Origin: Escherichia phage vB_EcoM_FB
DNA length: 64,000 nucleotides
Sequence record: MT682711.1
Strand: one strand, 5' to 3'
Positions 24,757 to 61,446 of this stretch are shown piece by piece. The notes under the pieces were generated by a model. The model did not search any database, was not told where the DNA came from, and was given only the letters and a program-made list of their open reading frames with translations. The translations under genes and the position numbers were made by a program. The number at the start of each line of letters is the position of its first letter. Positions within the stretch are counted from its first letter, which is position 1.

Positions 24757-25122
24757 TTAGATGTCGAATTCGTTCAGAACTACATCAAAGATTGCTTCCA
24801 GGTGTTCAGGTTTAGCTCGGTTGCTCAGGATGTGACGAATCCAAGTTTTAACCAGAAGCTTACGATTAACACCGTTCCAGCAAGGATGGGTACCTAAATC
24901 ACGTTGACGGAAATCATCATCTAAAGCGATTTTAAAAGTAGAACCTTCCATTGTGATTGAAACCGTAATACCATTTTCAAAGCGCATATAAACGTAGTTA
25001 GGAGTCATGCACTGTTCGATTTCGCACACCGCGCCGTTGTTGTGTTTCCACAGGCAAATAACTTCAGAAGAACCAGCGATACCGTTAGAAACATATTTAC
25101 GTTCGAAGTTGATGTAGTTCAT
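24757..25122 (-). CDS. hypothetical protein (121 aa)
   Basis: CTGGAGAATAAA SD; leader duplicated from the next gene upstream. Confidence 0.5.
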   Translation of the reverse strand: MNYINFERKYVSNGIAGSSEVICLWKHNNGAVCEIEQCMTPNYVYMRFENGITVSITMEGSTFKIALDDDFRQRDLGTHPCWNGVNRKLLVKTWIRHILSNRAKPEHLEAIFDVVLNEFDI

Positions 25123-25149
25123 TTTATTCTCCAGTTTGTTTTCGTATTA

Positions 25150-25186
25150 TTTGGTACAGGTCTATAATAACACAACCTGTACCAAA
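25150..25186. other. strong intercistronic hairpin (11 bp perfect stem, 15 nt loop)
   Basis: TTTGGTACAGG / CCTGTACCAAA; loop carries a degenerate -10-like TATTATAGA. Confidence 0.6.
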
Positions 25187-25195
25187 GTAAAACAT

Positions 25196-25528
25196 TTATT
25201 TCACAACATTCCAATTTTTCATATCAAGTTTACCAACTTTTTTCATCTGAGCAATCAGACGTTCAGCACGTGTACGGGCATTAACATAATAGAATTCACC
25301 ATTTTTGTTTTCTTCAATACGACCAGTAATTACAGTTTTCAGTTCATAAATCCAACCTGTAAAGAAGTTGTGAAGCTCGATGGTGAATGTAAAATCAGTA
25401 CCCATACCTTCAGTTGTTTCAACTTCGATGATATCACCTTCAACTGCAGTCAGGACCCACATGGTTTCTTGATATTCACCGTTGAAACATTTAGCTTTAA
25501 CAGATGCATTCAGATTTACAGTTTTCAT
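25196..25528 (-). CDS. hypothetical protein (110 aa)
   Basis: ATG with GGAGAATAAA SD and its own early promoter. Confidence 0.5.
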   Translation of the reverse strand: MKTVNLNASVKAKCFNGEYQETMWVLTAVEGDIIEVETTEGMGTDFTFTIELHNFFTGWIYELKTVITGRIEENKNGEFYYVNARTRAERLIAQMKKVGKLDMKNWNVVK

Positions 25529-25569
25529 TTTATTCTCCAGTTTGTTTTAGTATTATTTGGTACATGTCT

Positions 25570-25598
25570 ATAGTATCATGCCTACCGGAGATGTACAC
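25570..25598 (-). promoter_or_regulatory. early promoter variant (TGTACA ... TACTAT)
   Basis: RC reads GTGTACAtctccggtaggcatgaTACTATAGA. Confidence 0.45.
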
Positions 25599-25626
25599 CC
25601 TTTTTTAAAGATTTAGAAACAAAAAT

Positions 25627-25644
25627 GGGACTCCGAAGAGTCCC
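25627..25644. terminator. UUCG/CGAA-loop hairpin
   Basis: GGGACTC-cgaa-GAGTCCC just downstream of the small ORF stop. Confidence 0.55.
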
Positions 25645-25649
25645 ATAAC

Positions 25650-25811
25650 TTATGCCTGAGGCTTACCAAAGCAAGCAGCATCTGCACGCAATACTGCACG
25701 AGCACGAGCTTGAAGCTTATCAACTACCTGATTGATACGCTTGTTGGACGCACGCTTGTAACCAGCGCGTTTAGAGGTACCGTCAACTACTTTAACTTCT
25801 TTCTTAGCCAT
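25650..25811 (-). CDS. small basic protein (53 aa), unassigned
   Basis: MAKKEVKVVDGTSKRAGYKRASNKRINQ...; CGT/GGT/AAA-rich codon use; terminator immediately downstream; weak SD. Confidence 0.4.
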   Translation of the reverse strand: MAKKEVKVVDGTSKRAGYKRASNKRINQVVDKLQARARAVLRADAACFGKPQA

Positions 25812-26073
25812 TTTAAATCTCTTAAATTAGGATGCAGGACTTATTGGCGTTGCCTGCGCAAGCCCTCAAGGGGAACATAGGTTTCGGATATTTAACGACA
25901 GGATAACCATAAACCTCGTCATCATACCAACCACGACTTAGACAGATAACCTTTTTCTGACGCGTGATAGTACAAAATACATTCAAGAGGTACACCGTAA
26001 AACTGTTGGGGTCTTAAAACTATAATGATTCGCAAATCATTAATCAAACAGTTCGACGGCTCCTCGATTTAAC

Positions 26074-26322
26074 TTACTTCAGGGTAATAATAAAATGACG
26101 TACTGCTTTACGAGCTGCTGAAGCCAAAGGCTTAGCAAATTTCAGTTCATCTTTAGCTTCCAGTTCAGCAGCCAGAGTAGCCTGAGCAGGATTCAGATGT
26201 TTGAAATAACGCAGGATTTCCAGTGCTTCGGCTTCAACATCAATAGATGCGCCGTAGTTTTCGTGACCGTTGTTCCAAGCGTTGCGTTGCAGTTCAAGAG
26301 CGTGATTCAATTGTTTGTTCAT
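26074..26322 (-). CDS. rIII: rIII lysis inhibition accessory protein
   Basis: 82 aa; MNKQLNHALELQRNAWNNGHENYGASIDVEAEALEILRYF matches recalled T4 rIII. Confidence 0.85.
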   Translation of the reverse strand: MNKQLNHALELQRNAWNNGHENYGASIDVEAEALEILRYFKHLNPAQATLAAELEAKDELKFAKPLASAARKAVRHFIITLK

Positions 26323-26468
26323 TTTAGTTTCTCAATTCGAGATAAAGATTGGTGGACACGTTCTTCTGAATTTCACTTCCTTTCGGCAAGTCTCTCAGTT
26401 GTAGTCCACCGCTTAGGATTCTCCGGTTAACTAACTAGTCCGGCAGCCAATCCATATTATTATTTATA

Positions 26469-58163: not shown

Positions 58164-58201
58164 TTTGTATCTCCATTTCACTCTATTGTTTTGATAGGTC
58201 T

Positions 58202-58230
58202 ATAGTATCATGTTTAAAGCAGAAGTAAAC
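58202..58230 (-). promoter_or_regulatory. early promoter (GTTTAC ... TACTAT) for motA
   Basis: early promoter consensus; MotA-box-like TGCTTTAAA overlaps. Confidence 0.5.
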
Positions 58231-58253
58231 ACTTTTTTCACTAAACCAAAAAA

Positions 58254-58269
58254 GGAACCCGAAGGTTCC
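58254..58269. terminator. hairpin between gene 52 side and motA
   Basis: GGAACC-cgaa-GGTTCC flanked by A6/T5. Confidence 0.65.
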
Positions 58270-58374
58270 TTACTTTTTAAAGTGAGCTGCTATTAAACCT
58301 ATAGCTAAGCCTGTCGCCAGGCCCAGAATAACAGCAAAGATACAGAGTAACAAGAACTCGACTCCAAGGCTCAT
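58270..58374 (-). CDS. small hydrophobic peptide (34 aa)
   Basis: MSLGVEFLLLCIFAVILGLATGLAIGLIAAHFKK; ATGA overlap with gene 52 stop. Confidence 0.35.
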   Translation of the reverse strand: MSLGVEFLLLCIFAVILGLATGLAIGLIAAHFKK

Positions 58375-61190: not shown

Positions 61191-61301
61191 TCAGAAGTTA
61201 AAGAATACACGTACATGGTCAATCATAAAAACGATTGGGAAAATGCTCAATACCAAAAATAACACAAACATGTTCCAAATTGCTTTAAGTAAGTTTTTCA
61301 T
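61191..61301 (-). CDS. small hydrophobic peptide (36 aa)
   Basis: MKNLLKAIWNMFVLFLVLSIFPIVFMIDHVRVFFNF; GGAG SD; own early promoter. Confidence 0.3.
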   Translation of the reverse strand: MKNLLKAIWNMFVLFLVLSIFPIVFMIDHVRVFFNF

Positions 61302-61446
61302 AATCATCTCCATTAGTTGATAGGTCTATAATATCATGATTAATGGAGATGTACACTGTTTTATGCCAATTTTCACAACAATAAACTAAAACATACGCAA
61401 ATCACTGGGATACAGGTCAACCAAATAAGGCACCACGTTTTGCTAC

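Follow-up and report, generated by a model that had tools for sequence, protein, structure and literature searches.

We analyzed a 64,000-nucleotide (nt) stretch of the genome of Escherichia phage vB_EcoM_FB (sequence record MT682711.1; hereafter, the window), focusing on the spacer that separates the lysis-inhibition gene rIII from the small gene 30.9 on the same strand. The window DNA is 100% identical to that of the Dhakavirus Escherichia phage QL01 (Tevenvirinae) and 95%–99% identical to that of IME08, Bp7, WG01, and others. Its minus strand has the T4 gene order cd, 31.2, 31.1, 31, rIII, 30.9, 30.8, 30.7, and the order rIII-30.9-30.8 is the same in T4, IME08, and QL01. Between the stop codon of rIII (26074-26076), the upstream neighbor of the spacer, and the start of 30.9 lies a 262-nt gap (25812-26073), the largest internal non-coding gap of the 64 kb when unconserved internal open reading frames (ORFs) of 56–57 amino acids (aa) are discounted. 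The gap holds a series of RNA modules (A, B, M1, M2, and M3, in the direction of transcription), an early-type promoter-like site, and a Shine-Dalgarno-like sequence, and an intrinsic terminator follows 30.9 (Table 1).

Table 1. Features of the rIII-30.9 spacer, its flanking genes, and an element found at the same place in relatives
Feature	Position	Strand	Description and basis
Module A	25984..26066	(-)	long imperfect hairpin, CGAGGAGCCGUCGAACUGUU ... AACAGUUUUACGGUGUACCUCUUG; promoter-like site in apical part
Sigma-70 early-type promoter-like site	26019..26047	(-)	TTGATT, 17-nt spacer, TATAGT; 9/12 matches, promoter scan
Module B	25927..25970	(-)	hairpin with conserved apical loop AAAAAGGUUAU; RNAalifold
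M1	25876..25924	(-)	candidate H-type pseudoknot; covariation, 21 distinct sequences
M2	25863..25873	(-)	mini-hairpin CCCC-UUGA-GGG, then conserved CUUG; 97% of cells pair on alignment A6
M3	25834..25857	(-)	hairpin GCAGG[CAACGCCAAUAAGU]CCUGC with conserved 14-nt loop; 100% of cells pair
Shine-Dalgarno-like sequence	25818..25823	(-)	purine-rich AAGAGA, 6 nt upstream of the 30.9 ATG; from sequence
Gene 30.9	25650..25811	(-)	53-aa highly basic conserved protein; phrog_1427, E = 4.3e-27, residues 1-53
Intrinsic terminator	25617..25646	(-)	9-bp stem, 5 G-C pairs, UUCG loop, U-tract TTTTTGTTT; terminator scan
rIII	26074..26322	(-)	lysis-inhibition accessory protein; phrog_1457, E = 5.5e-43; annotated as rIII in QL01 and IME08
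Gene 30.8	25196-25528	(-)	gp30.8; PF06019; downstream of 30.9
Element X (example)	L007:~840-980	minus strand of locus	Tequatrovirus G4498; RNAalifold

Results

A Conserved Non-coding Spacer between rIII and 30.9

As a first-pass annotation of this DNA had stated, the interval 25570-26073 contains no ORF of at least 60 aa in any frame, the longest being 57, 56, 53, and 41 aa. The very basic 53-aa ORF to which that annotation drew attention exists on the minus strand at the place claimed; it is gene 30.9, which has been annotated already and hence is not new. The roughly 260 nt described there as non-coding correspond to the 262-nt spacer, and in an alignment of the spacers of T4, T2, PhAPEC2, G4498, LF82-8, CE1, IME08, and C6, 1-nt and whole-block insertions and deletions (indels) destroy every spacer reading frame. 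Because the 1-nt indels break every frame in relatives, the spacer is non-coding. Small protein genes hidden in it, for instance a 57-aa GTG ORF (25822-25995) or a 19-aa ATG ORF starting at 25922, could be imagined, since small ORFs have been annotated here in G4498 and T2 and UniProt holds a 97-aa extended T4 product. However, indels of 1 nt or of whole modules shift or remove every frame between close relatives and no convincing ribosome-binding site is found, so that we consider such genes extremely unlikely and rejected the candidate peptides on the evidence of the frame-breaking indels. The UniProt entry in question (T4 [quoted passage not shown]) over-extends the 30.9 ORF upstream into the non-coding leader, as do the 72-aa 30.9 calls in other records.

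Aligned spacer positions are 92%–97% identical to those of Mosigvirus and Tequatrovirus, compared with 86%–92% for rIII and 76%–77% for 30.9 at the DNA level. By blastn the spacer is matched in 775 phage records and in none of 5,426 E. coli genomes, so that it was not copied from a host leader. An Rfam search of the region at E ≤ 10 gave nothing usable: the spacer had one chance-level match of 11.7 bits, and the miRNA and snoRNA rows were likewise at chance level and fell elsewhere in the region. The whole window matched no family at gathering scores, and the spacers of six relatives gave no match either. With ARAGORN, neither the region nor the spacers of relatives yielded a tRNA or tmRNA. 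The T4 GenBank and RefSeq records annotate no feature at the spacer. Neither Rfam nor the searchable literature yielded a description of its RNA architecture, which looks undescribed; gene 30.9 itself is already known. Next in length among the internal gaps are 61223-61446 (224 nt) and 58182-58370 (189 nt); 26323-26468 (146 nt, between gene 31 and rIII) is a further comparatively long ORF-free gap, and none of these three has an Rfam match at gathering score.

Covarying Helices on the Gene Strand

We surveyed the modules in 43 distinct rIII-30.9 spacers from about ten genera, drawn from Dhakavirus, Tequatrovirus, Mosigvirus, Gelderlandvirus, Karamvirus, Mosugukvirus, and Marfavirus and from other phages of Klebsiella, Serratia, Edwardsiella, and Citrobacter. 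Every one of the 43 spacers contains M1. Its helix P1 pairs 25914-25924 with 25893-25902 (UGAUGACG.GG with CC.GUCGUUA), and its helix P2 pairs 25907-25911, a 5' strand enclosed by P1, with 25876-25881, a 3' strand that comes after an A-rich linker; both this linker (CGUUAAAUAUCCRAAAC) and the other one (GGUUAUCC) are conserved. Across 21 distinct M1 sequences from ~10 genera, 86% of alignment cells pair, with a covariation score of 0.572 that compares with at most 0.185 for slid partners and is reached by none of 500 shuffles. In the core of P1 all cells pair (100%) and two of the three pairs are changed on both sides (G-C, A-U/U-A/G-C, and C-G/G-C/U-A); in P2, 80% of cells pair and four of the seven pairs are changed on both sides, as exemplified by the variants AUGG/CC.AU, GGUAG/CUACU, UAGUAG/CUACUA, GUGAG/CUCAC, GUUGG/CCAAC, and CAAG/CUUG. 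With two crossing helices that each carry compensatory changes, M1 is, as judged by sequence comparison, a candidate H-type pseudoknot. In the window's own M1, P1 is predicted to be stable (-8 kcal/mol).

Two hairpins lie between M1 and the start of 30.9. M2 is present in all relatives but Pectobacterium phage PM2, with variants such as GCCU-UCG-AGGC and CCU-UCG-AGG. The stem of M3 is swapped for GAACUGG/CCAGUUC in Gelderlandvirus; in Klebsiella and Enterobacter phages it is GGGAGC/GCUCCC or GGCGA/UCGCC instead and encloses a longer insert. M1-P1, M2, and M3 also covary when they are aligned together. Upstream, RNAalifold predicts 25 pairs for module A from 13 variants, five of them changed on both sides (for example, G-C to A-U via a G-U intermediate), and 15 pairs for module B from eight variants, again with five changed on both sides. 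Salmonella phage STML-198 has only the basal stem of module A, without the promoter insert. Module B is absent in T4, lies downstream of M1 in CC31, and is replaced by a 140-nt element, X, in other phages. Many of the G-U pairs, whether invariant or intermediate, would become A-C mismatches if read on the plus strand, which assigns the structures to the RNA of the gene strand. The suggestion of the first-pass annotation that the interval might encode a non-coding RNA is supported in part: the spacer is non-coding, unusually conserved, and marked by compensatory changes on the gene strand. The Rfam and tRNA searches of the interval matched no family and no tRNA.

In Klebsiella, Enterobacter, and Citrobacter phages (loci L012, L014, L028, L049, etc.), the place of M3, downstream of M2 and ahead of the ribosome-binding site of 30.9, is taken by a hairpin of ~60 nt (GCGGGAGC...GCUCCC). 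The inner part of this hairpin resembles another pseudoknot, in which CAAC/GUUG would cross CCGA/UCGG; a CUGA/UCAG variant is compensatory.

RNAalifold also paired AGGGCUUG with UAAGUCCU, an alternative that is incompatible with M2 as well as with M3 and is found in the group of T4, Mosigvirus, and Dhakavirus. Such a mutually exclusive pairing, together with the very high conservation of the M1 linkers and a topology that resembles the preQ1-I and SAM-II pseudoknot aptamers, raises the question of whether M1, with its A-rich third loop, is a new riboswitch aptamer that controls 30.9 through alternative M2/M3 pairings. Like M1, the preQ1-I, SAM-II, and guanidine-III aptamers are compact H-type pseudoknots with an A-rich third loop and highly conserved linkers; the third loop of M1 is longer, however, and M1 has no covariance-model match and no clear expression platform. 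The alternative pairing moreover is disrupted in Gelderlandvirus and missing from Klebsiella phages, no Rfam riboswitch is matched even at E ≤ 10, there is no candidate ligand, and a 53-aa basic protein would be an atypical product for riboswitch control. We consider a riboswitch very improbable.

Promoter, Ribosome-Binding Site, and Terminator

The early-type promoter-like site in the apical part of module A is conserved in Tequatrovirus and Mosigvirus, and transcription is predicted to start near 26012. The spacer of this promoter contains a small hairpin, AATGATTtgcgAATCATT (26024-26041; AATGATT-tgcg-AATCATT); the first-pass annotation had recognized the hairpin correctly, its end coordinate (26024..26039) being two bases short. 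No promoter-like site was reported by the scan in M1, M2, or M3. The UUCG-type hairpin noted earlier downstream of 30.9 was recovered as GGGACUC-UUCG-GAGUCCC followed by AUUUUUGUUU, at the same place as the terminator found by the terminator scan, and homologous terminators are annotated in PhAPEC2, G4498, and G8. The scan found no terminator-like site between rIII and 30.9, nor any from the modules to the start of 30.9. The 30.9 Shine-Dalgarno sequence of other genera is covered by a covarying hairpin (UCUCC/GGAAGA changing to CCUC/GAGG), an observation in favor of translational control; this hairpin is weak in the window group.

The consensus for cleavage by RegB is GGAGRAYARAA (PMC1702504), and the AAGAGA of 30.9 is not a GGAG RegB site. 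We rejected RegB cleavage at the GGAG in module A because GGAGCCGUCGA violates the A-rich consensus and sits in a stem. Two further promoter candidates considered by eye, a middle (MotA) one at GGGCTTGCG and a late one at GTTAAATA, were also discarded, each being a poor match to its consensus and unconserved in other genera. Finally, inspection showed the 3' arm of module A (CUCUUGAAU) to be complementary over 9 bp to the window's Shine-Dalgarno region (AUUUAAGAG); in T4 and Mosigvirus only 5 bp of this are left, and it is not relied on here. It should be noted that the ribosome-binding sites of the neighboring genes 30.7 and 30.8 (25122-25132 and 25528-25538) are exact copies of the T4 RegB/S1 consensus GGAGAAUAAAA (PMC1702504), and that 30.9 is without such a site. 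Both of these genes are preceded by near-identical cassettes (25122-25195 and 25528-25600, minus strand) that resemble promoter-early stem-loop (PeSL) elements and in which a promoter-like sequence is combined with a stem-loop (such as GGTACAGGT...ACCTGTACC, 25153-25183) and a 5' untranslated region (UTR; ...AAAACAAACTGGAGAATAAAATG).

PeSL cassettes were reportedly described by Arbiol et al. in 2010 in the hyperplastic regions of T4-type genomes. They combine a strong sigma-70-like early promoter with a stem-loop and are small non-coding cassettes shuffled between phages, in which the spacer of the window is similar. In the window, however, the promoter does not follow a terminator hairpin but is embedded in the apex of a long one, and the downstream 200 nt (B and M1–M3) have no PeSL counterpart; given this placement of the promoter, and a motif that occurs only once in the window, we rejected module A as a PeSL cassette. 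More generally, the conservation of the spacer could reflect a DNA-level function or recent exchange, that is, a promoter and recombination cassette like PeSL, spread by homologous recombination or gene conversion. The promoter embedded in module A would fit this, as would indels at module boundaries, the swapping of modules between genera, the PeSL-like promoter/stem-loop cassettes that flank 30.8 and 30.7, and one phage in which a rearrangement places a partial rIII copy after the leader. A DNA-level explanation nevertheless leaves unaccounted for the helices kept by compensatory changes across ~10 genera and the G-U pairs that work on the transcribed strand only, and no promoter-like site was reported in M1, M2, or M3; we regard it as quite unlikely.

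Distribution of the Modules and of Element X

M1 and M2 are single-copy in the window, and among the T4-like contigs of the IMG/VR database M1 is found only at the rIII-30.9 slot. Fourteen M1 pattern hits in unrelated IMG/VR phages were dismissed as chance matches, as they fall inside coding regions and have no flanking similarity. As to whether the interval is variable or absent in relatives, which the first-pass annotation had named as an outcome that would refute its proposal, the answer is divided: whole modules come and go between phages, but the 110 nt adjoining 30.9 are kept in 43 of 43 spacers.

In many genera, including other Dhakaviruses, the rIII-30.9 spacer contains element X, ~140 nt in length (CGGCAAGUGCAUGCUACCCCGAGG...GCUAACGGUGUGCAACAGAUAAGAG), which replaces or adjoins module B and is absent from the window. 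Besides the example in Table 1, it occurs at loci L012, L014, L016, L022, L024, L025, L028-L031, L034, L035, L047, and L049-L052. RNAalifold predicts 42 pairs in X, 12 of which show compensatory changes; there is no Rfam or tRNA match to it, and in IMG/VR it appears once per genome, only in the rIII-30.9 slot. On this comparative evidence, X looks like an undescribed structured RNA family.

Could the spacer then give rise to stable structured RNA, in one or several species, that works in trans either by itself or bound to gp30.9 in a ribonucleoprotein, with gene 30.9 merely sharing the transcript? Possible roles would be the sequestration of a host factor such as ribosomal protein S1, which is bound by the neighboring RIII protein (PMC9409239), or the countering of host defence. 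The modules do behave as independent units, varying in order and presence and each covarying by itself; the strongly covarying X sits in the same slot and nowhere else; the entire spacer, including loops and linkers, is more conserved than its coding flanks; and distant 30.9 homologs lack a structured leader. On the other side, no terminator-like site separates the modules from the start of 30.9, the modules always lie directly upstream of this gene, no Rfam relative is found, and no trans-acting RNA had been functionally characterized in T4 according to a 2010 review of T4 post-transcriptional control, which states the same of riboswitches (PMC3014915). We consider a trans-acting RNA unlikely. 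A broader version, in which the spacer of enterobacterial T4-like phages would be a dedicated non-coding RNA locus whose modules B, M1, M2, and M3 (and, in many relatives, X) are processed into a stable RNA or an RNA-gp30.9 particle that is trans-acting on a host or phage factor or ligand-sensing, appears doubtful; if it were true, neither a riboswitch nor a regulatory non-coding RNA would have preceded it in the T4 group.

In two T4-like contigs (L058:8410-8710 and L073, minus strand; vB_vPM_PD06-like), the leader is entire, from module A through M1, M2, and M3 to the ribosome-binding site, but precedes, in place of 30.9, an ATG fused to the last ~27 codons of rIII (...ELKYAKPLASAARKAVRHFVVTLK*), an arrangement that, from its sequence, is a local duplication or rearrangement. 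In IME08 (L002:2040-2110), an extra 65-nt insert (GTTTTAAGTGGATGTTGGCAGGTACCTCCACTATAATATGATACCTGC...) lies between rIII and module A, just past the rIII stop; it contains TATAAT and an inverted repeat and looks like another small promoter/stem-loop cassette.

Gene 30.9 and Its Product

The gp30.9 annotation is carried by the QL01, IME08, CC31, and T4 records, and the conservation of the 53-aa ORF is borne out by the phrog_1427 match together with tblastn relatives in 1000 phage records. The T4 protein (NP_049823; PHROG 1427) belongs to the same family, and its gene likewise stands between rIII and 30.8 and shares the terminator of the window gene. The window protein is shorter (53 aa versus 58 aa in T4), with a shorter Lys/Ala N-terminal tail, and the two are ~66%–70% identical. 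The T4 spacer is likewise homologous to that of the window, with modules A, M1, M2, and M3 present and module B absent. A nine-phage alignment (A1) defines an invariant core, G-x-SKRAGYKR-x-SN-x-R-x-N ... RAR-x-V, of which S13, K14, R15, A16, Y18, K19, N23, and R38 are still invariant in a 40-sequence alignment (A3).

The codon usage bears out its earlier description as typical of highly expressed genes: the fraction of codons optimal in E. coli is 0.73 in 30.9, the top value among the window ORFs (median 0.51 for 69 non-overlapping ORFs of at least 90 aa), although the sample is only 52 codons, and all six of its Arg codons are CGT or CGC. The next-highest fractions are those of the neighbors 30.7 (0.73) and 30.8 (0.70). 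In T4, the 30.9 transcript is classed as "early" by RNA sequencing, and the protein is unclassified in the proteome (PMC9697503 supplement). Gene 30.9 is thus real and conserved, and it is probably highly expressed.

A profile search of 5.8 billion proteins returned 96 relatives of gp30.9, all of them short and all from T4-like phages, and HMMER, run exhaustively against 1.84 billion representatives, yielded 24 short proteins only, with no link to any known family. Pfam domain searches gave no match, and a sequence search of the PDB found no relative, the best hit (SlmA, E = 0.19) being a chance helix match. An AlphaFold2 model of gp30.9 has two helices at low confidence (pLDDT 69), and a Foldseek comparison of this model with the PDB gave no match. 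That gp30.9 binds nucleic acid, as proposed in the first-pass annotation, is a guess. Several public records mislabel the genes of this locus, giving gp30.9 homologs as "1,4-alpha-glucan branching enzyme, GH-13-type" or "lysis protein" and, in the case of phage CE1, rIII as "tail fiber protein."

Distant 30.9 homologs in other T4-like phages (MAKQKK...GYKRKSN.R...) are found as stand-alone units, in which a consensus promoter and a short leader that includes a GGAG ribosome-binding site precede the ORF and a terminator follows it. These units adjoin the gene for DNA ligase or lie near that for dCMP deaminase, without rIII and without a structured leader (L099:2434-2760 and L100:2480-2760).

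Discussion

The spacer lies between an early-type promoter and the ribosome-binding site of 30.9, a position that makes a cis-acting leader likelier than a free-standing RNA gene. We lean, with modest confidence, toward the view that it is the structured cis-acting leader of the 30.9 mRNA within the 30.9 expression unit of this T4-like (Dhakavirus) phage. Transcripts of 30.9 would start at the promoter inside hairpin A, so that modules B, M1, M2, and M3 would form a leader of ~200 nt, followed by the Shine-Dalgarno sequence, 30.9, and the strong terminator. Transcription that begins at the promoters of gene 31 and of rIII should read through the spacer too, and the terminator would end both these 31-rIII-30.9 transcripts and the 30.9 transcripts. 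As there is no terminator-like site between rIII and 30.9, and as rIII is served by several promoters (early, middle, and late; PMC9409239), the same RNA would be the 5' leader of 30.9 on both kinds of transcript and, in addition, the 3' UTR of rIII on the read-through transcripts.

In this cis-acting role, the leader may set the stability, processing, or translation of the 30.9 mRNA. By analogy with the pseudoknot in the T4 gene 32 leader, the likeliest mechanism would be the binding of a protein to the leader, for which the basic gp30.9 is an obvious candidate. The gene 32 product binds its own leader and represses its own mRNA (PMC3014915, PMC535899), and the H-type pseudoknot of that leader is located tens of nucleotides upstream of the ribosome-binding site, as is M1. 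The two leaders are, however, unrelated in sequence, and the region from M1 to the start codon consists of hairpins rather than of an unstructured A/U tract. Circumstantial points in favor of an autogenous operator are the basic protein, the structured leader, and the constant linkage to 30.9 in the 43 spacers. A second comparison is with the T4 genes e, soc, 49, and I-TevI, in which RNA structure near the start makes translation promoter dependent (PMC3014915): in other genera the 30.9 Shine-Dalgarno sequence is similarly held in a covarying hairpin, whereas in the window the modules are well upstream of the ribosome-binding site and the Shine-Dalgarno hairpin is weak.

Several observations weigh against this reading. 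A fold of the window's own sequence by itself is no more stable than its shuffles (z = -0.67 for the gene strand and -1.51 for the other strand), so the case for structure rests on the comparison with relatives and not on thermodynamics; in M1, P2 in the window's own sequence is weak, marginal, or register-shifted to GGUUU/AAACC, and the alignment behind the M1 covariation count was re-registered by hand with the use of anchors. Module order and presence vary (M2 comes before M1 in Karamvirus, and some phages lack A and B), as would be expected of independent elements more than of a single integrated operator, and the module types do not follow the subtypes of the gp30.9 protein. In addition, the short unstructured leaders of the distant T4-like 30.9 homologs imply that the protein does not need this leader RNA. 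These last three observations speak against a tight pairing of protein and operator and leave some room for the rival view of the spacer as a non-coding RNA locus of its own.

As a class, we rate the spacer as a structured, pseudoknot-containing phage mRNA leader, which is a kind already known. The spacer, ~260 nt in length, is conserved above the level of coding sequence in at least three genera, contains helices covarying in ~10 genera, and is absent from Rfam; it stands in front of a highly codon-optimized early gene. The locus is a concrete case for T4-type post-transcriptional control and for the function of gp30.9, and it offers two new RNA motif families, M1 and X.

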